DNA of 64,000 nt from an uncultured Candidatus Saccharibacteria bacterium (GCA_964568775.1 CAZMQW010000004.1:164-64163); one strand, 5' to 3'. Counted from the stretch's first letter, positions 3,597-38,269 are shown. A program made the numbers and translations. Notes: generated by a model from the sequence alone, not told the origin.

Positions 3597-3602
3597 TAAT
3601 AT

Positions 3603-3702: not shown

Positions 3703-4215
3703 ATGGCTTTAACCAAGACTCAAAAACAAAAAATCATTAGCGATTTAAAGGACAAGGTCGCCAGACAAAAAGCGATTGTTTTTGCTGATTTCCAGGGGTT
3801 GAAAGTGAAAGATTTGACTCAGCTGAGAAAGGAAATGAAAAAGAACGAAGGCGAGTTGAAAGTGGCCAAAAAGACTCTGATTTCAAAGGTTTTTCAAGAA
3901 AAGAAGATTAATTTAGATCTAAAGAAATTGAGCGGTGAAATAGTCCTGGGTTTTGGTTATCAGGATGAGGTTTTGCCTTTCAAAACCATTTATAATTTTT
4001 CCCGTGATCACGAAAATTTGAAGATTCTCGGCGGTTTAATCGGCGGAGAGCTGGTTGAACAGGAAAAAGCCGTTCTCTTGGGCCAATTGCCGGCCAAAGA
4101 GGAATTGCTAGCCAGGTTAATTGGCAGTATTTCCGCTCCGCTGTCGGGTATCGTTAACGTTTTACAAGGCAATATTAAAGGTCTAGTTTACGCTTTAAGC
4201 GCAATTAAAAAATAA
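3703..4215 (+). CDS. rplJ: 50S ribosomal protein L10
   Basis: [18 protein letters not shown]...[23 protein letters not shown] chose the ATG at 3703 because the upstream part of ORF 3670 overlaps the leader stem. Confidence 0.9.
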
Positions 4216-8975: not shown

Positions 8976-9034
8976 AAAGACAATAAAGCAAGAGGCCAAA
9001 GGTCGATTCTTATACCAACCAAAAATACTTTACT

Positions 9035-9199
9035 ATGGATTTCTCGACTATCATTTTAATAATTGCCGCTGTTGTGCTGGTTGCTTTGGCTGTTTTCCTT
9101 TCGACCAGAAAGAAGGGCCCCCGCTTGCCGCAAAAACCAATGGGACCGGCTACGCCGCCTTCTTCGCCGCCTCCACCGCCAGCCACACCGTCAGCTTAG
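9035..9199 (+). CDS. possible small membrane protein with a Pro-rich tail (54 aa, below the track cutoff)
   Basis: Hand translation gives MDFSTIILIIAAVVLVALAVFLSTRKKGPRLPQKPMGPATPPSSPPPPPATPSA. It is in a different frame from track ORFs 8833 and 9063. Confidence 0.4.
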   Translation: MDFSTIILIIAAVVLVALAVFLSTRKKGPRLPQKPMGPATPPSSPPPPPATPSA

Positions 9200-9268
9200 T
9201 TCAGTTTTACTGATATTGTATTTAAGGGTTTGTCATTATGGCAGCCCTTTTATATAATATAGAAAGGT

Positions 9269-9712
9269 ATGAAAACCAGCCATAAAACTTTAGAATTCCA
9301 AACCAAAAAAGAATTTGACTTTATTGACTTGACCCAGGAGGTGGAAGAATTCGTCGGCCAGAGCCAGATTAAAAACGGCTTGGTTAACGTTCAGACCCTG
9401 CACACCACCGCCCCTTTATTTTTAAACGAGAACGAACCCATGCTGCTGGAGGATTTCCGAGAGCACCTGTCCAGGCTTTTCCCCAAGAACTTAAATTACC
9501 ACCACAATGATTTCAGCCGCCGCACAGTCAACATGCACGAGGATGAATGCCGCAACGCCCACTCCCACTGTCAGGCTTTGCATCTGCCCTCCAACCTGAG
9601 TTTGAATATTATTGACGGCCGAATGCAGTTGGGCCAGTGGCAGAGGATTTTTCTGGTTGAGTTAGACCAGGCCAAACTGAGAAAAATTCAACTGCAAATA
9701 ATCGGAGAATAA
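9269..9712 (+). CDS. YjbQ/UPF0047 family protein (secondary thiamine-phosphate synthase-like)
   Basis: VNVQTLHTTAPLFLNENEP...D..E and a C-terminal GxWQRIFLVELD motif, typical of the family. Confidence 0.75.
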   Translation: MKTSHKTLEFQTKKEFDFIDLTQEVEEFVGQSQIKNGLVNVQTLHTTAPLFLNENEPMLLEDFREHLSRLFPKNLNYHHNDFSRRTVNMHEDECRNAHSHCQALHLPSNLSLNIIDGRMQLGQWQRIFLVELDQAKLRKIQLQIIGE

Positions 9713-9713
9713 A

Positions 9714-11093
9714 ATGAAAAGGATTTTAACTATTGAAACAACCAAATATGTCGGGGAAAAGGTTAAGCTTTTCGGCTGGGTCAATACTCGGCGGGACCAC
9801 GGTCAGATAATTTTCATTGATTTAAGAGACAGGGCCGGATTGGTCCAGATTGTTTTCCCGGCCAAAACCGCCCACTCAATCAGGCCGGAGTGGGTGATTG
9901 CTGTTGAAGGAAAAGTCAAAGCCAGGCCTACAGGCATGCAGAATCCCAAAATGGCTACGGGCAAGATTGAGGTTGCAGCTGAAAAACTGGAAGTTCTCTC
10001 GAAAGCCAAAACCCTGCCTTTCAGTATTGATACTCCAGGTTATGAAATATCAGAGGAAAAACGTTTACAATACCGCTATTTGGATTTACGCCGAGCCAGG
10101 CTAAAGAAAAACTTGGCTGTCCGGCACCAGGTTATTCAGTTTATCAGGGACTTTTTAGCCAAAGAAGAATTCTGTGAAATCGAAACTCCGATTTTGACCA
10201 AATCAACGCCCGAGGGAGCTCGGGATTTTTTAGTACCTTCCCGCTTGCAGCCGGGCAAGTTTTACGCTCTGCCCCAAAGCCCCCAGCAGTACAAACAGAT
10301 GCTGCAGGTGGCCGGCTACGAGAGATACTTCCAAATTGCCAGATGTTTAAGGGACGAAGATCCCCGGGCTGACCGGCAGGCCGAACACACGCAGCTGGAT
10401 TTGGAAATGAGTTTTGTTGACCAGGAAGATATTCTAAGTTTAACTGAAAACTTGTATGCTCAGATGGTCAAGAAGCTTTTCCCTGGCAAGAAAATAACCA
10501 AAACTCCTTTTCCCCGGATCAGCTACGCCGAAGCCATGAAAAAATACCGGACCGACAAACCTGACCTGAGAAAAAATAAAAAGAATGCTGACGAACTGGC
10601 TTTTTGTTTTGTGGTTGATTTTCCCATGTTTGAATGGCACAAGGAAGAAAAAAAATGGGGGGCTGTGCATCATCCTTTCACCCGACCACAGACGACTGAA
10701 ATCAATAAGATTAAGAAGCAGCCAGAAAAAGTTTTGGCTCACCAGTACGACTTTGTTTTGAACGGTGCCGAAATCGGCGGTGGAAGCTTGCGGACAATTG
10801 ATTTAGCTGTTTTAACCGCTGTTTTTGAGGTTTTGGGCCACAAAAAACAAGACATTAAGAAAAATTTCAAACAATATTTCGAAGCTTTCACTTATGGAGT
10901 ACCGCCTCACGGTGGCATTGCCCCGGGGATTGACCGGTTTTTGGCCGTGGCTTTGGGCGAACCCAACATTAGGGAAGTGATTGCTTTTCCCAAGACCGGG
11001 GACAATCGGGATTTAATGATGGATGTGCCTTCTGAAGTTTCTCCCCGACAATTAAAAGAGCTTCATTTGAAAACAACCAAAAAGAAGCAATGA
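9714..11093 (+). CDS. aspS: aspartate--tRNA ligase, bacterial-type sequence but without the large insertion (GAD) domain
   Basis: FYALPQSPQQYKQMLQVAGYERYFQIARCLRDEDPRADRQAEHTQLDLEMSF, and motif 3 GGIAPGIDRFLAVALG. It is only 459 aa, and DKPDLR runs almost directly into VVDFPMFEW. Confidence 0.9.
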   Translation: MKRILTIETTKYVGEKVKLFGWVNTRRDHGQIIFIDLRDRAGLVQIVFPAKTAHSIRPEWVIAVEGKVKARPTGMQNPKMATGKIEVAAEKLEVLSKAKTLPFSIDTPGYEISEEKRLQYRYLDLRRARLKKNLAVRHQVIQFIRDFLAKEEFCEIETPILTKSTPEGARDFLVPSRLQPGKFYALPQSPQQYKQMLQVAGYERYFQIARCLRDEDPRADRQAEHTQLDLEMSFVDQEDILSLTENLYAQMVKKLFPGKKITKTPFPRISYAEAMKKYRTDKPDLRKNKKNADELAFCFVVDFPMFEWHKEEKKWGAVHHPFTRPQTTEINKIKKQPEKVLAHQYDFVLNGAEIGGGSLRTIDLAVLTAVFEVLGHKKQDIKKNFKQYFEAFTYGVPPHGGIAPGIDRFLAVALGEPNIREVIAFPKTGDNRDLMMDVPSEVSPRQLKELHLKTTKKKQ

Positions 11094-12049
11094 TTAGAAT
11101 TATCAAGCTAGTTTTACCCCTCCTGGTTTTGGGTCTGCTTGGCTGGTGGGGGATTAATAATTTACAACCGAAAGTTTTTGATTTTTTTTACCAAAGGGAG
11201 CTGATCCACAATCCCAAGATACTGAGCGCCCAGGCCAACCAGACAGCGTTTGAAGAAAGAACTAAAGTGTTGAAGCCCTTGCGCGACCAGAGAACAGCTG
11301 ATTTGAATATTGCGGCCCGCTCAGCCGTTTCTTTTCTGGTTAAGGATTCGGGCCAGGAAATGATGCTTTTTCAAAAACAGATTGACAAACCCCTGCCCAT
11401 TGCCAGTTTGACTAAGTTAATGACCGCTCTGGTTGTTTTAAAAAACTACGACCTTGGCAGAAATATTACAGTTTCCCAGGAAGCGGTTCAGCAGGAAGAA
11501 GACTTGGGCCGGTTGACGGTTGGTCAGACTCTTTCGGTGGAAACCTTGCTCTATCCTTTGCTTATGGAATCGAGTAATGACGCAGCTTTCAGCCTGGCCA
11601 ACGATTATCCGGATATGGATCAGACTAAGTTTGTCGGGCTAATGAACTCTCAAGCGCAAAAACTGGGCATGTCTGATACTTATTTTAGCAATGAAAGCGG
11701 GCTTGATTCGGAGAACTCGGAACCGAGCAATTATTCCACGGCCCGCGACCTGGTTGTTCTGGTCCAGGCTTTACTGGATGAACCTTTAATCTGGCAGATT
11801 CTGGGTACAGCCAAAATAAATCTGTACGGGGTTGAACTGATCAGCACCAACCAGCTTTTAGAAGAGATGCCTCATGTTATCGGCGGCAAGACCGGCTATA
11901 CCGAAGAGGCCCTGGGTTGCTTTCTTCTGGTTCTCAAGCCCTTTATGGGCCACCAGTATGCGGTCAACGTGATTTTAGGCACTGGCAACGGCCGCTTTAC
12001 TGAAATGGCCAAGCTGGTTGACTGGAATAAAAAAGCCTATCAATGGTAA
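11090..12049 (+). CDS. D-alanyl-D-alanine carboxypeptidase (serine type, PBP5/6-like)
   Basis: SxxK (ASLTKLM), SxN (SSND) and KTG (GKTGYT) motifs in the expected order, with an N-terminal signal/anchor. Confidence 0.8.
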   Translation: MIRIIKLVLPLLVLGLLGWWGINNLQPKVFDFFYQRELIHNPKILSAQANQTAFEERTKVLKPLRDQRTADLNIAARSAVSFLVKDSGQEMMLFQKQIDKPLPIASLTKLMTALVVLKNYDLGRNITVSQEAVQQEEDLGRLTVGQTLSVETLLYPLLMESSNDAAFSLANDYPDMDQTKFVGLMNSQAQKLGMSDTYFSNESGLDSENSEPSNYSTARDLVVLVQALLDEPLIWQILGTAKINLYGVELISTNQLLEEMPHVIGGKTGYTEEALGCFLLVLKPFMGHQYAVNVILGTGNGRFTEMAKLVDWNKKAYQW

Positions 12050-12053
12050 ATTT

Positions 12054-13127
12054 ATGCTTTACTTTCCCGAAGCAGCTACCGACGTGATCAAAACATTCTT
12101 TCTGGGAACTGTCAGCTTTCTCATAGCTTTCTGGTTCACGCCTTTTCTGACCAGGATCCTTTACAAGTACAAACTCTGGCGCAAGACTGTCCGAACCAAG
12201 TCAATCGATAACAAGGAACTAACTTACTTCCAGAAGTTTCATTCCGAGGGAGAAACCAATATCCCCAGGTTCGGGGGCGTTTTAATCTGGCTCGCTCCAG
12301 TTTTTATCGCCGGTCTCTTTTATATTTTACACAAAGCTGACACCGGCGTCTGGTGGCTGGAAAAACTGACCTTTTTGAGCCGGGACCAGACCTGGCTGCC
12401 TTTTTTCGCCCTGATTACGGGCGCTTTCGTCGGGCTGATGGACGATTTCCTGCAGATAAGAGGCAAAGGCAGATATATTTCGGGAGGCCTGGGTTTGAAG
12501 CAGAGACTTGTTTTGATGGGGTTGATCGGCATTGCGGGTGCTTGGTGGTTTTACTACAAACTTGGCTGGTCAACTCTGCATGTGCCGGGCATGGGCGATT
12601 TGGAAATCGGCATCTGGTACATTCCTTTGTTCGTTATCGTAATGATGGCAACTTATTCTGGCGGGGTGATTGACGGGCTGGACGGTTTATCGGGAGGAGC
12701 GTTTGCCTCCATCTTCGGAGCTTACGCTGGCATTGCTCTGTTTTTAGGCCAGATTAACCTGGCTGCTTTCTGTACGGTTGTTCTGGGAGCTTTGCTGGCT
12801 TTCTTGTGGTTTAATATTCCGCCGGCCCGCTTCTATATGGGCGAGACCGGGATGATGGGGCTCTGCGCTGCTTTGACCGTGGTTGCTTTTATGACTGATT
12901 CGGTTCTGCTTTTGCCGATCATCGGAATTCTGCTGGTGATAGAGTCAGGCTCGGTTATTCTGCAGTTGCTATCCAAGAAGTTGCGCCATAAAAAAATATT
13001 CCTGGCTGCTCCCATCCATCATCATTTTGAAGCCAAAGGTTGGCCTCCTTACAAGGTAACAATGAGGTTTTGGGTTATTGGGGCGGTAGCGGCCATTATC
13101 GGTATTACTATAAGGTTATTAGGTTGA
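12054..13127 (+). CDS. mraY: phospho-N-acetylmuramoyl-pentapeptide transferase
   Basis: Polytopic membrane protein with GLMDDFLQIRGK, DGLDGLSGG and APIHHHFE motifs. I chose the start at ATG 12054, after the upstream stop. Confidence 0.9.
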   Translation: MLYFPEAATDVIKTFFLGTVSFLIAFWFTPFLTRILYKYKLWRKTVRTKSIDNKELTYFQKFHSEGETNIPRFGGVLIWLAPVFIAGLFYILHKADTGVWWLEKLTFLSRDQTWLPFFALITGAFVGLMDDFLQIRGKGRYISGGLGLKQRLVLMGLIGIAGAWWFYYKLGWSTLHVPGMGDLEIGIWYIPLFVIVMMATYSGGVIDGLDGLSGGAFASIFGAYAGIALFLGQINLAAFCTVVLGALLAFLWFNIPPARFYMGETGMMGLCAALTVVAFMTDSVLLLPIIGILLVIESGSVILQLLSKKLRHKKIFLAAPIHHHFEAKGWPPYKVTMRFWVIGAVAAIIGITIRLLG

Positions 13128-13185
13128 GTTTGAGTCTCTGCGCCCCTGCGGTTAAAATCCAAACAATCACTCAATAGGTGGGGGA

Positions 13186-13213
13186 CTTGACAAATTTTAG
13201 CAAGGGTGTACAA
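13186..13213 (+). promoter_or_regulatory. near-consensus promoter with extended -10
   Basis: TTGACA (13186-13191), 16-nt spacer, TGTACAAT (TACAAT at 13208-13213). Confidence 0.55.
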
Positions 13214-13219
13214 TGTGAA

Positions 13220-13369
13220 GATAGAAGGGTGGTTCGTCACAGTGACTCAAGGTATGTATGTCCTTAACGTAACAGGCCTCTCTACCTAGTAGAGAGACGC
13301 TCTCCATGAGAGAGTGATAGTATGGACAGAAGTATCTTGAATAGTGGCATTACAACCACCCCTTTTTTT
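13220..13369 (+). ncRNA. candidate ~150-nt structured small RNA of unknown class
   Basis: No credible ORF. The ends pair (GGGTGGTT near 13223-13230 with AACCACCC near 13354-13361), followed by T7 at 13363-13369. Internal hairpins include CTCTCTAC/GTAGAGAG and CTCTC/GAGAG. Confidence 0.4.
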
Positions 13370-13487
13370 ACTTAAAATATCACTAGAATTAGGCTCAAAG
13401 GGTTAAATCTGGCATACAAACATATCTCTCCAATCTTTCAAACACAGTTCTAATGTCGTCCACGAGCCCATGCGGATTAAATTTAAA

Positions 13488-13524
13488 GAATCGCCAAGTA
13501 GGCGGTTTTTTGGTAGAATAGAGT
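13488..13524 (+). promoter_or_regulatory. hairpin + T6 + extended -10 module, copy 2
   Basis: Identical to copy 1 at 32 of 34 nt, with both differences in the hairpin loop. TAGAAT is at 13514-13519 and the ATG at 13527, 7 nt later. Confidence 0.5.
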
Positions 13525-13526
13525 AT

Positions 13527-14783
13527 ATGAAAAAGTTAAGCTTTTTAAGGAAAAGGCATCCTCGGTTCATCTACCAAGATTACTATTACAAGATTGTCAA
13601 CGATAATCTGCGGATTTGTTTCAAGTTCAAGATTGAACCGAATATCCGCTTCAAACCGGAAATCATTATCAGGAACGTTTCCGCATCAAGGCTGAAGAAG
13701 ATAGGGGAGAGGGCTTTAAACAATTTCGTCTTCCATTTGGGTCTGATAGAGATGTTAAGCTATTGGAAAGCCACCTGTTCACCGGAAATACTGGTCAGAG
13801 CCGGCTATTTGAACAAGGAGCAGATTAAATGGTGGCACGATTTGATAGTCAAAGGAATGGGCCAGTTCTTCTACGAGAATAAAATAGACTGGCGGCCAGC
13901 TGGCTTTTTAAAAATAACCAGCAATCCCAAGATTGAGGTTAAAAGTACCGAAGCCAGTAAGCTTGAGTTTAAAGACAGGTATTTGGTACCAATTGGCGGG
14001 GGCAAGGACTCAATTGTTACGTTGGAGCGCTTGAAAAGCCGAAAGGAATCTTTAAATTGTTTCTTGCTCAATCCCATTCAGGCAGCTAAGAGAATAACCA
14101 GGCTGGCCGGCGTTAGAAAGCCTGTTGTCGTTGAAAGAAAGATTGATCCGGTCTTGTTAAGGTTGAATAAACAAAGCTATCTTAACGGCCACACGCCCTT
14201 CACTGCTCTGCTTTCCTTTTTAAGCGTTTTCTGCGCCGTACTTTTTGACTACGAACACGTTGCTTTTTCCAATGAAAAGTCAGCTGACGAGGGCAATGTC
14301 AGATATCGGGGCAAAGTAATCAACCACCAGTACTCAAAAAGTTCGGAGTTTGAAAATAAATTCAAAGCTTATTGCAAAAAATATCTGGCCAGAAACATTC
14401 ATTATTTCAGCTTTTTGAGAAGATACAGCGAACTTCAAATCTCCCGGCTGTTTGCCAAATACCCCAAGTATTTTATTGCTTTCAGCAGCTGCAACGTGGC
14501 TGCCAAAACAAAGAAGAAATGGTGCGGCCAATGCCCCAAATGCCTTTTCGTTTACGCTGCTTTGTATCCTTATCTTGATAAAAAACAGCTTTTGAAGATA
14601 TTCGGTAAAGATCTTTTTGTCGATAAAAAACTGCTGCCTGTTTTGAAAAGTCTGATAGGGCAGGGGAGACATAAGCCGTTTGAGTGCGTCGGTACTTACC
14701 AGGAGAGCCGGCAAGCTTTAAAATTGAGCCTTAAAAAAGCAAAGCAATCAGGTAAAGTACCTTATTTGTTGACAAAATTATAA
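13527..14783 (+). CDS. PP-loop ATPase-like protein; candidate MurL-type UDP-MurNAc-L-Ala-L-Glu epimerase
   Basis: PP-loop-like LVPIGGGKDS and C-terminal CGQCPKCLF. The gene sits between mraY and murD. The MurL assignment rests on context plus the known ATP dependence of MurL, so it is inference. I chose the start at MKKLSF. Confidence 0.5.
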   Translation: MKKLSFLRKRHPRFIYQDYYYKIVNDNLRICFKFKIEPNIRFKPEIIIRNVSASRLKKIGERALNNFVFHLGLIEMLSYWKATCSPEILVRAGYLNKEQIKWWHDLIVKGMGQFFYENKIDWRPAGFLKITSNPKIEVKSTEASKLEFKDRYLVPIGGGKDSIVTLERLKSRKESLNCFLLNPIQAAKRITRLAGVRKPVVVERKIDPVLLRLNKQSYLNGHTPFTALLSFLSVFCAVLFDYEHVAFSNEKSADEGNVRYRGKVINHQYSKSSEFENKFKAYCKKYLARNIHYFSFLRRYSELQISRLFAKYPKYFIAFSSCNVAAKTKKKWCGQCPKCLFVYAALYPYLDKKQLLKIFGKDLFVDKKLLPVLKSLIGQGRHKPFECVGTYQESRQALKLSLKKAKQSGKVPYLLTKL

Positions 14784-14820
14784 TAGTATTTTAACAATTT
14801 ATTAAAAGGAGGCTAGGTCG

Positions 14821-15267
14821 ATGAACGAACAGAAAACAAACAAGAATTGTCGCCAGAAAATAGTTCTGGCAGCTCTTTACCTTTTTTCTCAAAACAAGAA
14901 CAAAAAAGCAGACAGCCCGCATGGTCGAGATAAAGAAGTCAGCTGGCCTGAAATTGCCGAATGCGTAAAGGAATTCCAGAAAAAGTTCCCCTTGGGATAT
15001 GAATTCTCCGATGAGCTTCTTGTCTGCCAAGACTTGATAGAAGACTTAAAAGACCTATGGCTAGATAAAAATTATATCAGAATGTGGACTAATGAGCCCA
15101 GGGGTGTTCCGCTTTTCCCCACGAACTTCGTTGCTTTAAAGCCAGAGGGCGCAAATTATATTAAAAGAGAAGTATTACTGTCTTTCGAAATGATAGAAGC
15201 GCTGAACAAGGCTATCGAGTTGGCAATTGAAAGATATAAAAAAACCTGGGGACCATATAGTCGTTGA
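14821..15267 (+). CDS. hypothetical protein (148 aa) inserted in the mur cluster
   Basis: Strong SD (aaaaGGAGGctaggtcgATG) and its own terminator. No family recognised. Confidence 0.6.
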   Translation: MNEQKTNKNCRQKIVLAALYLFSQNKNKKADSPHGRDKEVSWPEIAECVKEFQKKFPLGYEFSDELLVCQDLIEDLKDLWLDKNYIRMWTNEPRGVPLFPTNFVALKPEGANYIKREVLLSFEMIEALNKAIELAIERYKKTWGPYSR

Positions 15268-15270
15268 TAG

Positions 15271-15297
15271 GAGGCAGGAAAATTCCTGCCTTTTTTA
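15271..15297 (+). terminator. intrinsic terminator
   Basis: GGCAGGAA (15273-15280) pairs with TTCCTGCC (15283-15290), followed by T6. Confidence 0.75.
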
Positions 15298-15336
15298 TTT
15301 TAAAAAAGCCTGAATTTATGCTATTTTAAAAATAGC

Positions 15337-16575
15337 ATGCTGGAAGAATTCAAAGATAAGAAAATACTAATTTTGGGTTTTGGCCGGGAAGGCCAGGACA
15401 ATTTTTTGTTTTTGAGAAGGCTGTTTCCTAAAAAGACCTTGGGCGTTGCCGACAGATTAAAAATTAGGGGGCGCTGGCGAAAGGTTAAAAACGCGGAGTT
15501 CCATTGTGGCGAAAGTTACCTGACTTCTCTCAAAGATTACAAGGTGATTATTAAGTCTCCGGGAATTCCTTTTAAAATCATTACTCCTTTTTTAACCAAG
15601 AAACAAATAGTGACAACGCAAACAGAAATATTCCTGAAAAACTGTCCCGGTCAAGTTGTCGGCGTAACCGGCACCAAAGGGAAAAGCACCACCGCTACCT
15701 TGATCCACGAAATTCTCAAAAAAGGAGGCGTTAAATCCCAACTGGTCGGTAATATCGGCCGGCCCTCTCTTTCTTTATTATTTCAGGCTAAACCCCAATC
15801 GGTCTATGTTTACGAACTGTCTTCCCATCAGCTGTACAATCTTAAAAAAAGTCCTCAAATTGCCGTTCTTTTGAATATTTACCCCGAACATTTAGATTAT
15901 TACCGCAGTTTCAGTGAATATGTCATGACTAAAGCCAATATCACCAAATACCAGACAAAAAAGGATTATCTTGTTTTTAATTCCCGGGATCCTTTGGTCA
16001 GCAAAATAGCCCGGCAGTCAAAAGCCAAAAAGATTCCAGTTCAAGGAAAGTATTATAATCTGGACAAACAAGCAGCCAGAAGAGTAGGGGAGATATTCAA
16101 GATTTCTCCTCAGATTATTTCAAAGGCTATTGCAGAATTCAAGTTTTTGCCTCACCGTTTGGAATTTGTCGGTAAGTTCAGAGGAGTTGAATTTTACAAC
16201 GATTCTTTGTCAACCATTCCCCAAACAACCATGGAAGCTTTGGATCATTTGGGCGATAGGGTGCATACCTTGATTCTGGGCGGGTATGACAGGGGATTGG
16301 ATTTCAAGAAATTAGGACAAAGAATCAATAAAAGCAAAATAAAAACTCTGATTCTTTTCCCCAACACCGGTCAGCGCATCCTGGCTCAAGTTAAATCCCG
16401 CTCCATCAAGCACTTTTTTGTCAGCAACATGAAAAAAGCAATTGAAATAGCTTATCAACAGACCGCCAAAGGCAAAATCTGCCTGTTGTCGCCAGCTTCG
16501 CCCAGCTTCGGCTTGTTCCGAGATTACGAAGAGAGAGGCAATTTATTTAAAAAGTTCGTTAAAATGTTAAAATAG
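15337..16575 (+). CDS. murD: UDP-N-acetylmuramoylalanine--glutamate ligase (MurD family; D-Glu versus L-Glu specificity not decidable)
   Basis: GVTGTKGKSTTATLIHEIL, Mur ligase middle and C-terminal domains, and a SPASPSFGLF.DYEERG tail. Confidence 0.9.
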   Translation: MLEEFKDKKILILGFGREGQDNFLFLRRLFPKKTLGVADRLKIRGRWRKVKNAEFHCGESYLTSLKDYKVIIKSPGIPFKIITPFLTKKQIVTTQTEIFLKNCPGQVVGVTGTKGKSTTATLIHEILKKGGVKSQLVGNIGRPSLSLLFQAKPQSVYVYELSSHQLYNLKKSPQIAVLLNIYPEHLDYYRSFSEYVMTKANITKYQTKKDYLVFNSRDPLVSKIARQSKAKKIPVQGKYYNLDKQAARRVGEIFKISPQIISKAIAEFKFLPHRLEFVGKFRGVEFYNDSLSTIPQTTMEALDHLGDRVHTLILGGYDRGLDFKKLGQRINKSKIKTLILFPNTGQRILAQVKSRSIKHFFVSNMKKAIEIAYQQTAKGKICLLSPASPSFGLFRDYEERGNLFKKFVKMLK

Positions 16576-16579
16576 AACA

Positions 16580-17671
16580 ATGAAAGGCAAACCCGATCAT
16601 ATTCTGCTGGCTTCGGTGATTATGCTGATTTTGCTGGGCGTTGTCATCTTAACCAGCGTTTCAGCCGCTTTAAGCTTGGAGAAGTTCAATTCGTCTACCT
16701 TTTACCTGTTTCACCATATTGTTTATGGTCTTTTGCCGGGCATTCTGTTGGGATTTTTGGCTTTTAAAATGCCCCTGAACCTTATCAAAAAATGGGCGCC
16801 TCTTCTGCTTTTGTTTAATTTAATGCTGCTGATTCTGGTTTTTATGCCCAAGATCGGTCTGACTTTAGGGGGAGCCAGGAGCTGGATTAACTTGGGCTTT
16901 GCTTCTTTCCAGCCTTCGGAGTTTTTAAAACTAACTTTTGTTCTGTATCTGGCTTCCTGGCTGGCAATCAGGACAGAGAAATCTAGGCAGAATTTTTCCA
17001 AAACTTTGGTTGCTTTTTTGGCAGCCATTGGCCTGATCGGATTGCTCTTGATTCTGCAGCCAGACATCGGCACCCTGGGAATAATTGTTATGACCGGAGT
17101 GGTCATGTATTTTTTGGCGGGCACGCCGTTGAGGCACAGCTTTTTAATGGTTTTGGGCATTGGCGCGGCCCTAGCTGCTTTGATCAAAATTGCGCCTTAC
17201 CGTTTGGCCAGAATATCTGTTTTTTTCAATCCGGACATTGACCCAATGGGCATCGGCTACCAGGTCAAGCAAGCCTTGATCGCGGTCGGCTCGGGCGGCA
17301 TCCTGGGCCGGGGACTGGGCATGAGCGTCCAGAGATACGGCTTTCTGCCCCAGCCCATGGCCGATTCCATTTTTGCCTGCTACGCTGAAGAATGGGGGCT
17401 GATCGGCGCTCTGGTCCTGATAGCTTTGTTAATGGTTTTTATCTGGCGGGGCTTCACCATCGCCAAGAATACCACCAACAAGTTCTTTCAGCTGACCGCC
17501 CTGGGCTTGACCGGCTGGCTGGCTTTGCAGGCTTTCATCAACATCGGCTCCATGGTCGGGATACTGCCGTTAACCGGCATTCCTTTGCCTTTTATAAGCT
17601 ACGGCGGTTCGGCTCTGATAACTTCGTTGGTCGGGGTCGGTATTCTGCTTAATATTTCAAAACAAACATGA
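16580..17671 (+). CDS. ftsW: SEDS-family peptidoglycan polymerase FtsW/RodA
   Basis: About 10 TM segments, QPSEFLKL, GYQVKQALIAVGSGGILGRGLG and LPLTGIPLPFISYGGS. Confidence 0.85.
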   Translation: MKGKPDHILLASVIMLILLGVVILTSVSAALSLEKFNSSTFYLFHHIVYGLLPGILLGFLAFKMPLNLIKKWAPLLLLFNLMLLILVFMPKIGLTLGGARSWINLGFASFQPSEFLKLTFVLYLASWLAIRTEKSRQNFSKTLVAFLAAIGLIGLLLILQPDIGTLGIIVMTGVVMYFLAGTPLRHSFLMVLGIGAALAALIKIAPYRLARISVFFNPDIDPMGIGYQVKQALIAVGSGGILGRGLGMSVQRYGFLPQPMADSIFACYAEEWGLIGALVLIALLMVFIWRGFTIAKNTTNKFFQLTALGLTGWLALQAFINIGSMVGILPLTGIPLPFISYGGSALITSLVGVGILLNISKQT

Positions 17672-18795
17672 TTAAAATTTTATTCACCGGCGGAGGCACG
17701 GCCGGCCACGTTATACCCATTGTGGCCGTGGCCCGGGAGATAAGGAAACTGGGGTTTGAGGACAATTTCTTTTATCTTGGGCCGAAGGACGAGTTCAGCT
17801 CGATTTTGCTTTCGCAAGAGGACATTAAAATTAAAACAGTGATGGCCGGCAAAATCAGAAGATATTGGACATGGAAAAGTTTTTTACGCAACATCGTTGA
17901 TCTGCTGTTTAAAACGCCTTTGGGATTTTTCCAGGCTTTTTTCCAGGTCTTTCTCATCAACCCGAACCTGATTTTCAGTAAAGGAGGCTATGGCGCTTTG
18001 AGTACTTGTCTGGCCGGCTGGCTGTTGCAGGTGCCGGTTTTTTTGCACGAGTCAGACGTGGTGCCGGGCCTGGCCAACCGTTTTCTGAGCAGATTCAGCG
18101 CCAAAATCTTTGTTTCTTTCCCGGTGGCCCAGACAGAATATTTCTCAGCCGAGAAAATGATTTCGGTCGGCAACCCGATCAGAAGAGAAATAACTCAGGG
18201 CAATCGGGCAAATGCCAAGAAATTGTTTAATATTCAAGGCGACCGGCCGGTCATCCTGATTCTGGGCGGCTCGCAGGGAGCGCAGAAGATCAATGACATG
18301 GTTTTGACTATTCTGCCGCAGATGCTTAATGACTTTGAAATAATCCACCAGACCGGTGAAAAAAACTTCCAGCAGGTCAGGGCCGAAGCCAAGGTGGTTA
18401 TTGACCAGAGCTTGAGTAAATACTACCATCCCGTTGCTTTTCTGCGGGAAGTGGAAATCAGGGAGGCTTACAAGGTAGCTGACTTGGTGGTAAGCAGAGC
18501 TGGTTCTGGCAGCATATTTGAAATAGCAGCCTGCACCAAGCCAAGCATTCTGATTCCTTTGTCAAACTCGGCCCAGAACCATCAGGTTAAGAACGCTTAC
18601 GCTTACGCTGAATACGGCGCTGCTTTGGTGATGGAAGAAGCTAATCTGGCACCCCATTTTTTCCTGGAAAAGCTCAAGTATCTGTTCTCCCGTCCGGCCG
18701 AACTGGACAATATGAAAAAAACAGCGGAAGGTTTTGGCCAGCCGGAATCGGCCACCATCATCGCTCAATACGTCATTGACCGCCTCAAGAAATAA
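17668..18795 (+). CDS. murG: UDP-GlcNAc--lipid I N-acetylglucosaminyltransferase
   Basis: FTGGGTAGHVIP, LGGSQGA and RAGSGSIFE motifs. ATGA overlap with ftsW. Confidence 0.9.
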   Translation: MIKILFTGGGTAGHVIPIVAVAREIRKLGFEDNFFYLGPKDEFSSILLSQEDIKIKTVMAGKIRRYWTWKSFLRNIVDLLFKTPLGFFQAFFQVFLINPNLIFSKGGYGALSTCLAGWLLQVPVFLHESDVVPGLANRFLSRFSAKIFVSFPVAQTEYFSAEKMISVGNPIRREITQGNRANAKKLFNIQGDRPVILILGGSQGAQKINDMVLTILPQMLNDFEIIHQTGEKNFQQVRAEAKVVIDQSLSKYYHPVAFLREVEIREAYKVADLVVSRAGSGSIFEIAACTKPSILIPLSNSAQNHQVKNAYAYAEYGAALVMEEANLAPHFFLEKLKYLFSRPAELDNMKKTAEGFGQPESATIIAQYVIDRLKK

Positions 18796-18806
18796 TCTTA
18801 TTTATC

Positions 18807-19492
18807 ATGGCTTCGATCAAAGAAAATACTACCATCCGGCAATACCAGGATTTTACCAACCAGGTTTACGGCCTGTCCAACAAACGGCATTTCGGCTTGT
18901 GGGACATGGTCAGCAACCTGGAGCGGTTTGTCACGAGAGGTTTAAAAGGCATCAGAAAAAAAGACAAAAAAAAATCAAACTGAATCTTTTAATCGCTCTA
19001 ACCTGGTTCAGCTCAATTATGAACAGGCTGCAGATAGACCTGGAGGATGTTACGTGGCAGAGGTTTCCTTTTTTATGTTCTTACTGCGGTTCGTGCCCCT
19101 GCGTTTGCAAGGAGAAAAAAGTTAAAACAAGACAGGCTATCGCTGTGGACGAAATAAAGAGAGTTAAAACATTGAAAGGATTCCAGAATATGTTCAGCCA
19201 GATTTATCCTTCTGGCCGGCGGACGATCGAGGATGCGGGCATTCATTTGGCCGAGGAGCTGGGGGAATTTTCCGAATCAATCATGACTTATCGGGGCGGC
19301 CACCAGGAAAATGATTTCAATAAAATAGAAAAAGAAGCGGCTGATCTGCTTTCCTGCTTCATGGGCGTTTTTAACTCGGCCGACATATCCATGGCCAAGG
19401 AACTGTCTTTAATGTTCGCTGAAAACTGCCACGTTTGCAAAAAACTGCCCTGCACCTGCCAATTCCTTGACATTACCAAATTTAAATCCTAG
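18807..19492 (+). pseudogene. MazG-like nucleotide pyrophosphohydrolase (tandem domains, Cys clusters) split by a -1 frame change in a poly-A tract
   Basis: Frame 3 reads MASIKENTTIRQYQDF...GLKGIRKKDKKKSN* (stop at 18981). The MazG-like helix continues in frame 2 as IKLNLLIALTWFSSIMNRLQIDLEDV..., with EELGEFSE and EAADLL later. The junction is the A9 run at 18966-18974, preceded by an A7 run. Confidence 0.6.
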
Positions 19493-19539
19493 CATAAGGA
19501 AATAAAACCGAATACTTAGTTTCAGAAAAGGAGGTTCCG

Positions 19540-19971
19540 ATGTACTGGGGAAATTGCGTAGAGTCAATAATAATATTTCGTAGAGAAGGCCACCCGACCG
19601 CAAGAAAAGAACACGAATGCTGCGAATGTGGAGAGACGATTAAAATAGGTGATAAATACTGGTATTTCGTCGGCTGCTGGAACGATGGTTACCATGATGA
19701 CTATGATAATTATTTCGGGGCGTATAAAACGTGCTCACAGTGCGAAAAAGACTGGGATAAAATCATAGCAGCTCACCACGAAAACGGAGAAATAGAAGCC
19801 TGTCATATTTTCGGATTACTCAGAGAGGCCGTCCAGGAAGCGTTTGACGAAGGCTTCTTAACAGAAAACGACCAGCTAGTGCAAGAGTGGCTTGGTATTT
19901 TCCCGATAGAGATCCAGGGAAAACAAGAGGCACTTTTACAAATGAAACTTTACAGCGAACCCCTTCTTTAA
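19540..19971 (+). CDS. hypothetical Cys-rich protein (143 aa) with an N-terminal CxxC...CxxC zinc-ribbon-like module
   Basis: SD aaaaGGAGGttccgATG. HECCECGETIKIGDKYWYFVGC...CSQCEKDW. Confidence 0.6.
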   Translation: MYWGNCVESIIIFRREGHPTARKEHECCECGETIKIGDKYWYFVGCWNDGYHDDYDNYFGAYKTCSQCEKDWDKIIAAHHENGEIEACHIFGLLREAVQEAFDEGFLTENDQLVQEWLGIFPIEIQGKQEALLQMKLYSEPLL

Positions 19972-19986
19972 AAACGCAACCAGTGT

Positions 19987-20016
19987 AAGCTTCGGGACGA
20001 AACCGGAGCTTTTTTA
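19987..20016 (+). terminator. intrinsic terminator
   Basis: AAGCTTCGG (19987-19995) pairs with CCGGAGCTT (20003-20011), followed by a T-run. Confidence 0.7.
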
Positions 20017-20042
20017 TTGAATAAGATTATGATAAGCTGAAA

Positions 20043-21470
20043 TTGATGAAGATGTTTGATTTTGGTAAAACTCCTAGAGTCAGAATAGCGCCTTCTCCCA
20101 CCGGCTCTCTTCATATCGGTACGGCCAGAGCCGCGCTTTTCAATTATCTTTTTGCCAAAAAAGAGAATGGCAAGTTCATTTTGCGGATAGAAGACACCGA
20201 TCTGGCCAGATCTTTGCCCAAATTCGAAAAGGATATTATCGAAAGCCTGGGATGGCTAGGCATCAAATGGGACGAAGGTCCTTTCCGACAAAGCGAAAGA
20301 ATTTCAAGTTATAATAAACATTTAAAAAAACTTTTAGAAGAAAATAAAGTTTATTATTGTTTTTGCTCGGCCGACGAATTGGAAGATAAAAGACAGGAGC
20401 AGATGAGTAGGGGAGAGGCTCCCCGGTACAACGGCAAATGCCGGGAATTGTCCGAGAAAGAAGTTGAAAAAAACCTGGCTGATAAAAAACCCTGCATCAT
20501 CAGATTCAAAACTCCGGCCAAAAAAGTAAGTTTTATTGATTTAATCAGGGGCAAGGTGGAGTTCGACGCTTCTTTATTGGGAGACTTTGCTATAGCCAAA
20601 AGCCTGGACAGCCCTTTGTACAATTTTGCCGTGGTGGTGGATGATTTTGAAATGAAAATCTCCGATGTTATCCGGGGGGAAGACCACTTGCCTAACACGC
20701 CAAAGCAGATTCTCTTGCAGGAGGCTTTGGGCCTTCCCCAGCCCCAATACGCCCATCTGCCTTTGATTTTGGGACCTGACCGCAGCAAGCTGAGTAAAAG
20801 GCACGGGGCTGTGGCCATTGCCGATTACCGCAAACAGGGCTATCTGCCCGAAGCTATGGTCAACTTTATGGCGTTTCTCGGCTGGAATCCCGACACGGAA
20901 AGAGAGATTTATTCTCTGGCTTCCTTGGTCAAGGAATTCTCCTTGAAAAACGTGCAGAAATCAGGCGCTGTTTTTAATATTAAACGGCTGGACTATCTGA
21001 ACGGTTTTTATCTGAGGAGTAAGTCAGTAAGTAAATTGGCTGAATTGTGCGCCCCTTATTTGCCCAAGACTGACAAAATTCAGCTGGAAAAAATCGTGGC
21101 TCTTTATCAGGAAAGGCTGAAAAAGCTTTCCGAAATCAAGGGATTGACCGAATTCTTCTTTAAAGACAAGCTGAACTACGATAAAAAGCTTTTGCAGTGG
21201 AAAAGCATGGCTGACAAGGAAATCAGCCAATCTCTTGACAAATCAGAGAAAATATTGTTTAAAATAGATAAGAAAGAATGGACCAGGGGCAACCTGGAAA
21301 AGAGTTTGATGGCAGAGGCGGAAAAAGCAGGGGACAGGGGAGAGCTTTTGTGGCCCCTAAGGGTTGCTTTGACCGGCCAGGAAGCTTCCGCCCCGCCGTT
21401 TGAGATAGCCGAGATCCTGGGCAAGGAAAAAACATTAAAAAGGATAAAAGAGGCGAAAAAGCTTTTATGA
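20043..21470 (+). CDS. gltX: glutamate--tRNA ligase
   Basis: RIAPSPTGSLHIGTARAALFNY (HIGH) and KLSKRHG (KMSKS). The start could be any of the first three Met/Leu codons. Confidence 0.9.
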   Translation: MMKMFDFGKTPRVRIAPSPTGSLHIGTARAALFNYLFAKKENGKFILRIEDTDLARSLPKFEKDIIESLGWLGIKWDEGPFRQSERISSYNKHLKKLLEENKVYYCFCSADELEDKRQEQMSRGEAPRYNGKCRELSEKEVEKNLADKKPCIIRFKTPAKKVSFIDLIRGKVEFDASLLGDFAIAKSLDSPLYNFAVVVDDFEMKISDVIRGEDHLPNTPKQILLQEALGLPQPQYAHLPLILGPDRSKLSKRHGAVAIADYRKQGYLPEAMVNFMAFLGWNPDTEREIYSLASLVKEFSLKNVQKSGAVFNIKRLDYLNGFYLRSKSVSKLAELCAPYLPKTDKIQLEKIVALYQERLKKLSEIKGLTEFFFKDKLNYDKKLLQWKSMADKEISQSLDKSEKILFKIDKKEWTRGNLEKSLMAEAEKAGDRGELLWPLRVALTGQEASAPPFEIAEILGKEKTLKRIKEAKKLL

Positions 21471-26475: not shown

Positions 26476-27174
26476 TTAATTTTCAAGGTGCGATAATTTC
26501 AATAAATTGATGATATATTCCTTGGCTTTTAATTGTAACCTTATATTATTCTCAAATTCCAGAGCTGTCAATGGCCCGAAATATTCCAAAGGATACCTTT
26601 TTAGATAGTCCAGTTCGGACAAATCATTTAAATAATGGGGCTCTTCCGGAAAAGCCTTATCTTTTTTATTCAGCATTGGAAAGTTTTTGGCCGGGCTGAT
26701 ATGGCTACAGCCAACCGGGTATTTTTCTATCAGTTTGATGTTTTGTTGGTATCTGGCCGGCTGAAAAACCCGGGCGTTTTCCAAATGGGAGAAATCAAGA
26801 CAAATACCCCCGAACTCCTGAAGTTCTTTTTCGTCAAACGGATAAAGGCAGTTTTCAATGTAAATTGTTTTTTTATATTTGTCCAAATTATAAAGAAAAG
26901 GGAATTCCCTTTCGGTGTGGGTGTTGAAAACCTCGGTCTGGTAATGCTCAATCAAATAATCCATTTCCCACGGCTCCATATCGTTTCTAATATGGACGAA
27001 CGGGATTCTCTCAACCTTGGTTTGTTTGAGCAGCTGATAAAGTTGCTTCCTTTCTTCCTGCTTCAAACAAGTGGGAAAAAGAGCCACTTCCTTCAACCCC
27101 AGATCCTTTACTTCTTTAACCTTATCCCGCCAGGCTGATTTGGTTTTGGTGGTGATGGCCGGTAAAATTTTCAT
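26476..27174 (-). CDS. hypothetical protein (232 aa), last gene of the isoprenoid operon
   Basis: I chose the start at MKILPAI (27174), 1 nt after the uppS stop. No family recognised; a TIM-barrel-like alternation is only an impression. Confidence 0.55.
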   Translation of the reverse strand: MKILPAITTKTKSAWRDKVKEVKDLGLKEVALFPTCLKQEERKQLYQLLKQTKVERIPFVHIRNDMEPWEMDYLIEHYQTEVFNTHTEREFPFLYNLDKYKKTIYIENCLYPFDEKELQEFGGICLDFSHLENARVFQPARYQQNIKLIEKYPVGCSHISPAKNFPMLNKKDKAFPEEPHYLNDLSELDYLKRYPLEYFGPLTALEFENNIRLQLKAKEYIINLLKLSHLEN

Positions 27175-27175
27175 A

Positions 27176-27865
27176 TTATCTTCCTTTTGTTCTTTGACGA
27201 AGGCTGAACTCGGCCAAAGCTTTATCCAAATCAACTTCGGTAAAGTCCGGCCAGTACTTATTGCAGAAATAAAGTTCGGAATAAGCTGCCTGCCAGATTA
27301 AAAAATTGGAGATTCTTTGCTCTTTCCCGGTTCTGACCATCAAGTCAACGTCCGAGGTCCAGAGGTTTTCGGAAATGGTTTTTTCGGTAATCTTCTCCGG
27401 TGAAATCTTCTTTCGAATGATATTCCTGACGGCTGAGGTTATCTCGGCCCGGCCCCCGTAGCTTAAAGCTATATTCAAAACCATACCGCAGTTCTTTTTG
27501 GTCAAATCCTCGGCTTTTTTAAAAGAAGCTTGGATAACCTTGGGTAGTTTTTCTCTTTGGCCGATAATTTTAAGTCTAATCCCCTCTTTGGCAAACTGCC
27601 TGACGTCTTTGCTCAGAGCTTTTTTGAGCAAACTCATTAAAAAACTAACCTCAGTTTTGGATCTCTGCCAGTTCTCGGTTGAAAAAGTAAAAAGGGTCAG
27701 GATTTTGACGCCTTTTTTCTGGCAGTGCCTGATAATTCTTTCGGCCATTTCCATCCCTTTCTCGTGGCCTTTAGAAACCGACAAGCCTCGCTCTTTAGCC
27801 CAGCGCCGGTTGCCGTCCATAATAATGCCCAAATGTTGTGGAATTTTACTCATTTTGTCTTGCAA
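27176..27865 (-). CDS. uppS: isoprenyl transferase (undecaprenyl-diphosphate synthase family)
   Basis: HLGIIMDGNRRWAKERG, FSTENWQR, and RTGKEQRISNFLIWQAAYSELYF. Confidence 0.9.
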   Translation of the reverse strand: MQDKMSKIPQHLGIIMDGNRRWAKERGLSVSKGHEKGMEMAERIIRHCQKKGVKILTLFTFSTENWQRSKTEVSFLMSLLKKALSKDVRQFAKEGIRLKIIGQREKLPKVIQASFKKAEDLTKKNCGMVLNIALSYGGRAEITSAVRNIIRKKISPEKITEKTISENLWTSDVDLMVRTGKEQRISNFLIWQAAYSELYFCNKYWPDFTEVDLDKALAEFSLRQRTKGR

Positions 27866-28692
27866 TAATCGGCTAAGTTTAAAAGAAATTCCTTTTCCTT
27901 TTTAGGAAAAATCTTTTCTTGCTTTATGTTTTCCTGGCTCTTAACGATCAGACGTTGCTGCATTTTTCGGTATTTTTCTTTCTGGAAACCAAAAATATTC
28001 TCAATGTCGCCGTCTTTCAGGTCGTCCCTGATCTGAAAAGCTATACCCAGAGGCAGAGCGAACCGCTCTATTTTTTTCAGAAATTTTTCATCGGCTCCCC
28101 CCAATAAAGCCCCGACCTGCAAAGGAGTTACTACGGTGTAAAAAGCGGTTTTCCTGGTGTATATTTCCAGAACGTCTTGATCGGTGAATTTTTTCTTATT
28201 CCTTAAGTTTAACTCAAACATCTGGCCGTAGCCAGTGGAATACAGAGTCTGATTGAGTTTTTCCAGGGCCTTAAGCCTGTAACCAACCGGAAAAGGGCTG
28301 TCAGTCAAAATTTCGTAGCCCAGCGCATTGACCAAATCGCCAGCGCAAATCGCCAGATTTTCTCCGCAAAGGCGGTGCAGGGCTTTTTTGCCTCTTCTCA
28401 GTTCGTCTTTATCAATGATGTCGTCGTGAATTAAAAGATAGTTATGGATTAGCTCAATAAAAATAGAAGTTGTTAAAATGCCTTTTTTATTGCTTCCCCC
28501 GGCTAAAAAATAACCGTAATTAACCAAAATCGCCCGGATTCTTTTGGCCGGACGCAGAGAATATTCTTTCAGCCAGCCGAGCACCTCTTTTTCAAAAGGC
28601 GCTTTGGCTTGAGAAATCTTACCGTCAAAAAATTTCTCTATCTCTTGGCTAATTCCTTTTTGATAGTTTGATAAAGTTTGAGAAAATTGCAT
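27850..28692 (-). CDS. trans-polyprenyl diphosphate synthase
   Basis: First Asp-rich motif LIHDDIIDKDELRRGK and second motif FQIRDDLKD. Confidence 0.85.
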   Translation of the reverse strand: MQFSQTLSNYQKGISQEIEKFFDGKISQAKAPFEKEVLGWLKEYSLRPAKRIRAILVNYGYFLAGGSNKKGILTTSIFIELIHNYLLIHDDIIDKDELRRGKKALHRLCGENLAICAGDLVNALGYEILTDSPFPVGYRLKALEKLNQTLYSTGYGQMFELNLRNKKKFTDQDVLEIYTRKTAFYTVVTPLQVGALLGGADEKFLKKIERFALPLGIAFQIRDDLKDGDIENIFGFQKEKYRKMQQRLIVKSQENIKQEKIFPKKEKEFLLNLADYCKTK

Positions 28693-29638
28693 CGCTTTCC
28701 ATTTTAATGGTTTTTGGCAAAAGCCACGGCAGGTTGAAACCCAAAAAATAGACCGTCTTAGTGATTAACTGTAAAACAGTAATCTTGAACTGAAAACGTT
28801 TTTTTAACTGCCGATGGTATTTTAGGAAATCCGGAAAAGTGCTGAGCATAATATCGGCTGCTGTCAGCCCCCAGATCACTCCCCCGCCCGACCATGGCTT
28901 GGTTAACCCGGCCGCGTCGCCGCAAACAGTGACTGATTTATTAAAAGGCAAAGAAAATCCCTGGGGAATCAAAGCTGAAAGTTTATTGGACAATTGAATA
29001 TTCTTTTGCTTTAAAAAATCTTCAAAAATTAATACCGCTTCCTTGGGCCGGCCGATAATGCCGTATTCTGTTTTCTGGCCTCGGGGAATCTTCCAGATAA
29101 AGCCGTCCTTGACTGCCCAGGTTTCAACGCAGTCAGAACTGTCTGATTGATCAACAAAACCAAGAATGCCGACCCGGTATTTCAATTGTTTCAAACTTAA
29201 ACTTTTTCTGACAAAAGAATTGACACCGTCGCACCCGATTATCCTGTCAAACCCCTGGGGCAAAGCATCAACCGTTTTGCCCAAGACAATTTCTGCGCCC
29301 GCTCTCTTAGCCGAATCAGCTACCAATATATCAAGTTCGGCGTGGCTCATCACCAGAAAATCCTGGGAAAAGTTAATTCTGACTGTTTTGCCGGGAAAAT
29401 GAACCAAGGCCGATTTAATCCTGTTCTGGGCCAATGATCGGCTCCGGGGAATAAACTCTAAAATCTTTTCAGAAAAAAGACCTGCACAGGCCTCTTTACC
29501 GATTTTATTCTTTTTTTCAAAAATTATCACCCGATGACCTTTTTCAGACAGTTTCCAACCAAGATACAGTCCGACTATCCCGGCTCCGATAATAGCCACT
29601 TTCAATTTTGATTGGTTCTTTTCCATTGTTTTTAGCAA
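28649..29638 (-). CDS. FAD-dependent oxidoreductase, geranylgeranyl-reductase-like
   Basis: Rossmann motif VAIIGAGIVGLYLGWKLSEKGHRVIIFEKK and later VCGDAAG. Overlaps the prenyl synthase gene. Confidence 0.65.
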   Translation of the reverse strand: MLKTMEKNQSKLKVAIIGAGIVGLYLGWKLSEKGHRVIIFEKKNKIGKEACAGLFSEKILEFIPRSRSLAQNRIKSALVHFPGKTVRINFSQDFLVMSHAELDILVADSAKRAGAEIVLGKTVDALPQGFDRIIGCDGVNSFVRKSLSLKQLKYRVGILGFVDQSDSSDCVETWAVKDGFIWKIPRGQKTEYGIIGRPKEAVLIFEDFLKQKNIQLSNKLSALIPQGFSLPFNKSVTVCGDAAGLTKPWSGGGVIWGLTAADIMLSTFPDFLKYHRQLKKRFQFKITVLQLITKTVYFLGFNLPWLLPKTIKMESDAIFSNFIKLSKRN

Positions 29639-38268: not shown

Positions 38269-38269
38269 T

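Follow-up and report, generated by a model that had tools for sequence, protein, structure and literature searches.

The locus considered here lies in a 64,000-nt stretch of DNA (referred to throughout, at its full length, as the window) from an uncultivated, Nealsonbacteria-like bacterium, and consists of a MazG-like gene whose two parts are read in different frames. The genes before it, among them a Mur-ligase gene, ftsW and murG (Table 1), make up a partial dcw-type cell-wall context (window 7686-18795, plus strand). This context is not conserved: in the nearest relative a methylpurine-DNA glycosylase gene comes before the MazG-like gene, and the window has its glycosylase gene elsewhere, on the opposite strand. 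Downstream is a 143-aa Cys-rich ORF that has no Pfam match and matches only phage families of unknown function (phrog_7314, E 1e-6; phrog_19515; phrog_28814); in the nearest relative the MazG-like gene is followed by one for a 63-aa Cys-rich DUF6485 protein and then by encapsulated-ferritin-like, thioredoxin and ferredoxin-thioredoxin-reductase genes. In Rfam, a ribosomal protein L10 leader is the window's sole match at gathering threshold.

Table 1. Features of the locus and contigs of the same population, in window coordinates.
Feature	Position	Strand	Remarks
Ribosomal protein L10 leader (RF00557)	3587-3706	+	Rfam, 48.6 bits; upstream of ORF 3670-4215
Mur-ligase gene	7686-8975	+
ftsW	16580-17671	+
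murG	17668-18795	+	ends 11 nt before the MazG-like start
MazG-like gene, 5' fragment	18807-18983	+	frame-3 ORF, 58 aa, opens at ATG 18807
A7 run	18956-18962	+	in frame, AGA AAA AAA = R50 K51 K52; frame break lies elsewhere
A9 tract	18966-18974	+	site of the frame change; born by loss of the G of GAA (Glu55)
A_AAA_AAA heptamer	18968-18974	+	zero frame; potential -1 ribosomal slip site, which would give …D K K K I…
MazG-like gene, 3' part	18974-19492	+	frame 2, codons 57-228 and TAG 19490-19492
Stop of the frame-3 ORF	18981-18983	+	TGA
Cys cluster 1	19076-19108	+	C91-x2-C94-x2-C97-x-C99-x-C101; end of the degenerate N-terminal domain
115-aa fragment	19145-19492	+	from GTG 19145; P0121, P0122
Metal-binding motif	19253-19345	+	E150 E151 x2 E154 x2 E157 … E177 x2 D180; C-terminal domain
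Cys cluster 2	19427-19459	+	C208-x2-C211-x4-C216-x-C218; all four Cys and P215 invariant
CC dinucleotide	19459-19460	+	one C missing in L055
Cys-rich ORF (CCEC…CSQC)	19540-19971	+	143 aa; downstream of the MazG-like gene
Methylpurine-DNA glycosylase gene	37732-38493	-
Contig L001 (JGI 3300031551)	16304-19094		100% over 2,791 nt; A9
Contig L002 (Logan SRR9706179)	17364-18993		1,630 nt, one base more than the window and no mismatch; intact
Contig L055 (Logan SRR9707468)	18349-19839		one gap relative to the window; A9 and a second deletion
Contig L005 (Logan SRR9706179)	18940-20060		100% over 1,121 nt; A9

One gene in two frames

A single gene is split between the ORF at 18807-18983 and a frame-2 ORF that ends at 19492. 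The first consists of family codons 1-56, two out-of-frame codons (S, N) and the TGA stop, while frame 2 is free of stops from 18734 up to its terminal TAG; the junction reads …AGA AAA AAA GAC AAA AAA AAA TCA AAC TGA…. The whole span is 686 nt (3n+2), so that the frame needs +1 or -2 nt, and one base added in A9 gives a 228-aa fusion, …GIRKKDKKK|IKLNLL…. When this fused protein was searched against the window with tblastn, residues 1-56 were found in frame 3 and residues 50-228 in frame 2, and no second copy of the gene was detected within the 64 kb.

The initial annotation had described a 58-codon frame-3 ORF ending at TGA 18981 and continued in frame 2, with an A7 run at 18956-18962 and the frames joining in the A9 run at 18966-18974; these coordinates agree with ours, and the gap-free alignment of the fused product to its homologues (see below) bears out both the joining point and the proposal that the 686 nt are mended by a -1 shift or one added base. 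Of the two tract lengths that it named as giving an intact frame, A10 does so (as does A7), but A8 does not, leaving 685 nt. A shift in the A7 run rather than in A9 was considered and rejected: it would give R53-Q54 where the aligned homologues mostly have D53 (D/N/I, never R), and the intact allele described below (L002) differs solely inside the A9 region.

Public records divide the gene in several ways. A 58-aa gene is called at JGI contig Ga0315548_1030481, and the 115-aa fragment is the only annotated part of the gene on the NCBI contig of 64,734 bp and on a JGI contig of 5,298 bp. In window 18734-18965 the -1 frame (frame 2) has no stops over the gene's first 54 codons and the 24 codons upstream, and because it is open there one gene caller produced a chimeric 256-aa ORF (P0123). 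Orthologues have a mean of 4.75 stops in the same -1-frame region, with none in 1 of 44, and among the window's own genes -1-frame stretches are open in 4% at 54 codons and in 1% at 77 codons; the open frame is probably a product of chance and higher GC.

A tandem MazG-like protein with two Cys clusters

Assignment of the 228-aa product to the MazG-like group draws on matches in sequence and structure. Pfam MazG (PF03819) aligns with residues 146-196 and, at 20.9 bits (E 4.4e-4), falls just short of the 22-bit cut-off; a 76-sequence profile compared with the PDB recovers 1vmg (E 1.6e-4), 5ie9 (E 1.5e-3) and 2gta (E 0.088); and a PHROG MazG-like family matches at E 1.4e-3. Precomputed Pfam domains were absent from all 120 homologues listed. 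The AlphaFold2 model (pLDDT 94, pTM 0.91) is all-helical and has the four-helix-bundle fold, and its C-terminal domain matches 1vmg in Foldseek with probability 1.00, a target-normalised TM score of 0.79 and an rmsd of 1.5 A over 80 columns. At the level of single domains DCTPP1, RS21-C6 and DR2231 are also matched, more weakly (E about 1, none at E <= 0.001), and the whole two-domain model has no significant global match (best E 0.41).

When the profile of residues 1-104 was compared with that of residues 118-228, 97 columns aligned at a probability of 95% (E 3e-8), and the protein is thus an internal duplication. Each half ends in an invariant C-x2-C-x4-C-x-C cluster; C91, C94, C99 and C101 of the first are invariant in the 76 sequences, and the two clusters align with each other in the comparison of the halves. 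The halves differ in their acidic ligands: E151, E154, E157, E177 and D180 are invariant in the 76 sequences at the positions where Pfam MazG, 1vmg and 5ie9 align, and the N-terminal half has R/K/N/W in their place. Only the second MazG-like domain looks catalytic, to judge from these residues, and the first is probably a stand-in for the partner subunit of the usual MazG dimer; the protein is predicted to be an NTP pyrophosphohydrolase. The profile self-comparison, the model and the invariant cysteines together support the tandem architecture with two Cys clusters that had been read from the sequence at the outset. The accompanying statement that the junction falls inside one continuous MazG helix did not hold, since in the model helices 31-50 and 54-74 of the first domain are separate and the junction sits in the lysine-rich loop and N-cap that connect them. 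Nothing functional is left in the 58-aa product; every family-invariant residue of the downstream part is kept in the window gene.

Orthologues are read in a single frame

In a 5.8-billion-cluster protein collection the fused protein has 525 homologues at E<=1e-3. The top 120 are 59-74% identical to the query at 92-100% coverage (nearly all 100%) and are full length, nearly all exactly 228 aa. The fused product aligns to its homologues (whole-protein identity 58-74%) without a gap across the junction, where the query GLKGIRKKDKKK|IKLNLL faces the consensus GLKGIRKxDKEKTKINLL. The few annotated homologues are named 'MazG-like family protein' or 'NTP pyrophosphatase' (Candidatus Nealsonbacteria, Paceibacterota). 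The 228-aa family (L006-L053) occurs at 46-67% identity across many CPR lineages, including Nealsonbacteria, Paceibacterota, Woykebacteria, Liptonbacteria, Wolfebacteria and Komeilibacteria, as well as in MAGs labelled as DPANN archaea (Aenigmatarchaeota, Woesearchaeota, Nanoarchaeia); the latter occurrences reflect either transfer between ultra-small episymbionts or errors of binning or labelling.

At the DNA level, contigs drawn from one genome per species provided 48 loci with a relative of the gene, 47 of them covering the site, and in all 47 the gene runs through in a single frame. The usual orthologue reads GAx AAA GAA AAA ACx AAA at the site, and at the deletion site (codons 53-57) no A-run in any of the 47 exceeds 7; the sole longer ones in this stretch, an A8 and an A9, belong to the upstream RKK(N) codons of L043 and L042 and are in frame. 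The nearest relative (P0001, 74% identity) has GAC AAG GAA AAA ACC at the site and shares AGA AAA AAA GAC at the position of the A7 run. No conserved two-frame layout was found among the 47 orthologous loci, so the idea of a frame shift conserved in orthologues, which the initial annotation had raised, gives way to a layout that appears peculiar to the window.

Two of these orthologues have peculiarities of their own. L031 (DAIDAM010000005.1) has an in-frame TGA at about 2750-2752, at the family-invariant Trp84 (…EDEV*KRFPYLC…), with the remainder intact, and this is either a TGG-to-TGA nonsense change or the mark of a genome that decodes UGA as Trp. In L048 (JAPLWL010000004.1, 2501-3091) a 196-aa orthologue has a clean in-frame deletion of residues ~103-143, which removes the linker between the domains together with the catalytic domain's first helix.

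Frameshifted and intact alleles in one population

Contigs of the same population were recovered by exact-product look-ups using the flanking genes (Table 1). Two are identical to the window over their whole aligned length and carry A9. The third, L002, is intact: it reads GAC AAA GAA AAA ATC AAA CTG at the site, in frame, with AAAGAAAAAA at the position of A9, and encodes D-K-E-K-I, in agreement with the family consensus DKEK. The intact allele is known from this one short contig, which stops 25 nt past the G. The G allele is taken as real because one cannot believe in an error that inserts exactly the base by which reading frame and consensus residue alike are restored, and GAA is taken as the ancestral state because the nearest relative reads GAC AAG GAA AAA. 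The window allele thus reads as the ancestral sequence minus the G of Glu55, with A3 and A6 joined into A9. We ruled out that the second allele stems from a duplicated paralogue, the gene being single-copy in the window and the flank identical through murG.

The fourth contig, L055, has A9 and a second deletion, the loss of one C, by which the conserved C-terminus QFLDITKFKS is replaced by NSLTLPNLNPSIRK; the second deletion comes from a single short, low-coverage Logan contig and could be an error. Both contig differences from the window fall in the MazG-like gene, a concentration weakly above chance (~0.06 in an aligned-length tally).

In all, A9 is present in two SRA runs (SRR9706179, SRR9707468), in JGI 3300031551 and in the NCBI contig, that is, in at least four assemblies; on the NCBI contig (64.7 kb), as on the JGI contig of 5.3 kb, it is implied by the 115-aa gene calls. 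Other records are silent: among ~15 billion proteins there is no exact record of a full-length 228-aa protein with DKEK or with DKKK (the A10 product), nor of five other possible frame-2 products, exact-product look-ups with gltX (three alternative starts), the 115-aa fragment and P0122 gave no match, and the run and sample accessions turned up in no paper. Gapped and ungapped DNA patterns spanning the site matched nothing in metagenome or genome contig collections, which means that these collections do not hold the population, not even L001.

These data bear directly on whether the break is a sequencing or assembly artefact, the true sequence being in frame (AAAGAAAAAA or A10) and A9 an error. 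The break does lie in the longest homopolymer of the window, the organism is apparently at low coverage (contigs of 1-3 kb), and the Logan graph of SRR9706179 is broken exactly at the site with both versions present: L005 begins 26 nt before the A9 run and L002 ends 25 nt after the G. These contig ends look like an unresolved two-allele bubble in a de Bruijn graph with k = 31, which we take to be the value used in the Logan pipeline. Against an error stand the difference between the versions, which is a G and not a tract length, and the recurrence of A9 in independent read sets, in the JGI assembly and in the NCBI contig; we therefore regard an artefact as improbable, and the homopolymer error suggested initially as disfavoured, a judgement to which the other homopolymers of the window contribute (see below).

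The coexistence of two alleles in one read set (SRR9706179) also invites comparison with a phase-variable switch, in which the poly-A would toggle between A9 and A10 by replication slippage and so turn the enzyme off and on within the population; a coding tract of nine A is hypermutable by slipped-strand mispairing. Yet the ON allele is the ancestral, G-interrupted sequence and not A10, the contigs hold only A9 and the G-interrupted form as alleles at the tract, and the A10 protein is missing from the ~15 billion sequences; the tract is, moreover, unconserved in relatives, and the genome avoids long runs. A switch of this kind is accordingly very improbable.

Homopolymer runs in the window

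Apart from the A9 tract, no homopolymer in the 64 kb reaches a length of 9; dinucleotide-preserving shuffles lead one to expect 17.8 +/- 6.4 such runs, and each shuffle has at least one. Since the sole run of this length sits exactly at the break, the coincidence of tract and frame change is not due to chance. Among 18 confident genes none of the five Lys-Lys-Lys stretches is encoded as AAA AAA AAA, AAG always interrupting them, although AAA is the preferred Lys codon (386 against 202 AAG). Long A/T runs are thus avoided, which suggests selection against slippery tracts.

A further 60 runs of 7-8 A or T occur in the window, whose ORF map is dense, and no other split gene was found in it; as none of these runs breaks a gene, the assembly has no general homopolymer problem, a further point against an artefact at A9. 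Candidates for additional split genes (7686-8975/8833-9213, 37732-38493/38270-38896 and ORFs in 26476-29638) were rejected, their Pfam matches being complete domains of separate genes; the suspicious overlapping pairs were a PsbP-like gene beside the methylpurine glycosylase and complete MurD-type ligase domains, and 8833-9213 and 26476-27234 had no match.

Slippage and recoding signals at the junction

A slippery heptamer of the form X_XXY_YYZ is present as A_AAA_AAA at 18968-18974, with zero-frame codons AAA AAA, and the A9 run is of the length (at least 9 A/T) from which transcriptional slippage is expected (PMC5009743). Runs of 9 A/T cause efficient slippage of bacterial RNA polymerase, mostly as single-base insertions (PMC5009743; PMC5574713; PMC4256274); among transcriptional indels in A/T runs +1 predominates and becomes exponentially more frequent as the run lengthens, while in the same study no frame-restoring transcription error was found for pseudogenes of Buchnera (PMC5574713). 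Because +1 A is the predominant class, the A9 allele probably yields some full-length …DKKKIKL… protein.

Stimulatory elements were not found. The 100 nt downstream fold no better than shuffled sequence (MFE -21.5 versus a shuffle mean of -21.2, z -0.10), the first 50 nt forming one weak hairpin (7 bp, 18-nt loop, -6.5 kcal/mol), and no Shine-Dalgarno-like (GGAGG-like) element was seen 10-14 nt upstream when the sequence was read by eye. Nor are the run and the frame split kept across related lineages, being absent from the 47 orthologues, the nearest relative and the conspecific contig L002.

Evolved programmed recoding, either a -1 frameshift of the dnaX or IS type or programmed transcriptional slippage, with the 58-aa peptide and the full-length enzyme as its two products, would account for the slippery heptamer, the A9 run and the stop that follows two codons later in the zero frame. 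It would not account for a two-frame layout that is conserved in none of 47 orthologous loci and more than 500 proteins, for the lack of stimulatory elements, or for a tract that is derived within the population, and we consider it extremely improbable.

A weaker form of the same idea, that adventitious slippage rescues the gene sufficiently for its function, A9 being the major allele and the gene effectively alive, has more to recommend it. The tract reaches the length of efficient slippage and the added A that is needed would be the commonest product; A_AAA_AAA stands in the zero frame; A9 is found in four or five assemblies and the intact allele once; and all family-invariant residues downstream are intact. 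But the tract arose only with the deletion and occurs in none of the 47 orthologues, no stimulator is present at the site, and one A9 contig (L055) already has a second frameshift. A preserved gene, furthermore, is to be expected in any case because the event is so recent that the flanks are 100% identical. Sufficient rescue is on balance unlikely.

Discussion

The window probably carries a genuine and very young frameshift allele of a gene conserved in one frame, null to leaky in its effect, and so an incipient pseudogene. Of the three options first put forward for the locus (slippage site, pseudogene or homopolymer error), it is therefore mutation towards a pseudogene that is favoured, in the form of a young allele, while conserved slippage finds no support, given the single frame of 47/47 orthologues and the lack of a stimulator, and homopolymer error is disfavoured by the G of the alternative allele, the recurrence of A9 across data sets and the absence of any other split gene.

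The order of the mutational steps, like the leakiness of the product, we infer as follows. An ancestral GAC AAA GAA AAA ATC (D53 K54 E55 K56 I57) would have lost the G of Glu55, either directly or by a G-to-A change followed by slippage from A10 to A9. This deletion fused A3 and A6 into A9 and moved the 172 downstream codons into the -1 frame, with the consequence that standard decoding gives a 58-aa peptide without a catalytic domain. Full-length …DKKKIKL… would then arise only as a by-product, when RNA polymerase adds one A on A9 or, by an alternative route, through a -1 ribosomal slip on A_AAA_AAA. Accordingly the A9 allele may be a null or a leaky hypomorph, the hypomorph being more likely, and it would either segregate with the intact allele in the natural population or have recently replaced it. 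Apart from its one frameshift the window copy is perfectly preserved, which fits a very recent event and, equally, a gene under selection through slippage-supplied protein; the second deletion in L055 is as expected where selection is relaxed.

The finding is real but ordinary. It offers a snapshot of gene inactivation in an uncultivated bacterium of reduced genome, in which ancestral and frameshifted alleles lie on otherwise identical DNA and a doubly hit allele possibly coexists with both, and in which the missing base left behind a tract prone to slippage, by which the loss of the gene could be cushioned. It also counsels caution in annotation, since what is one gene of 228 codons appears in public records as a stub of 58 aa, a fragment of 115 aa or a chimeric ORF of 256 aa, and it outlines an apparently uncurated family of 228-aa tandem MazG-like proteins with two Cys4 clusters in CPR bacteria and DPANN-labelled MAGs. 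If leaky rescue occurs, a phenomenon of endosymbionts would extend to free-living or episymbiotic Patescibacteria. Should the A9 allele be both prevailing and functional, expressed only through RNA-polymerase slippage or -1 frameshifting on the newborn tract, which we think decidedly unlikely, it would represent 'savior' slippage caught in the act, a tuned-down house-cleaning NTPase and the first such case in the candidate phyla radiation.

Comparison with known systems

The closest parallel is with the poly(A)-interrupted genes of Buchnera and Blochmannia (2008), for which slippage reportedly supplies the full-length product. There, as in the window, a frameshift lies in a run of at least 9 A within an otherwise intact gene of a bacterium with a small genome, and one A added in the mRNA would restore the frame. 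Unlike those tracts, the one described here is neither ancient nor shared but was born of the deletion, its intact allele coexists with it, and the genome around it is not AT-extreme (~44% GC) and is depleted in long runs.

Programmed transcriptional slippage, as in Thermus thermophilus dnaX (A9), Shigella spa13 and Citrobacter rodentium tssM1, resembles the locus in its template and its early zero-frame stop. In tssM1 an A11 run yields a shift of about 20%, both products are needed, and the slippage site is conserved also in Yersinia pseudotuberculosis (PMC4256274). Programmed sites are conserved in this manner, whereas the relatives of the window gene are all single-frame and its short product amounts to 58 aa of a degenerate domain. 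The -1 ribosomal frameshifting at A_AAA_AAG or A_AAA_AAA in E. coli dnaX and IS elements likewise shares with the locus a zero-frame heptamer followed by the rest of the gene in the -1 frame; in contrast to those sites, that of the window has no hairpin or pseudoknot, no Shine-Dalgarno-like stimulator and no conservation.

The encoded protein, finally, shares with MazG-like all-alpha NTP pyrophosphohydrolases (PF03819; 1vmg SSO3215, 5ie9, YpjD 2gta, DCTPP1/RS21-C6, DR2231) the fold and the EExxE…ExxD motif of its C-terminal half. Those enzymes are usually homodimers, whereas the window protein has two domains fused in one chain, the first of them degenerate, and is set apart further by the invariant Cys4 cluster in which each of its domains ends.
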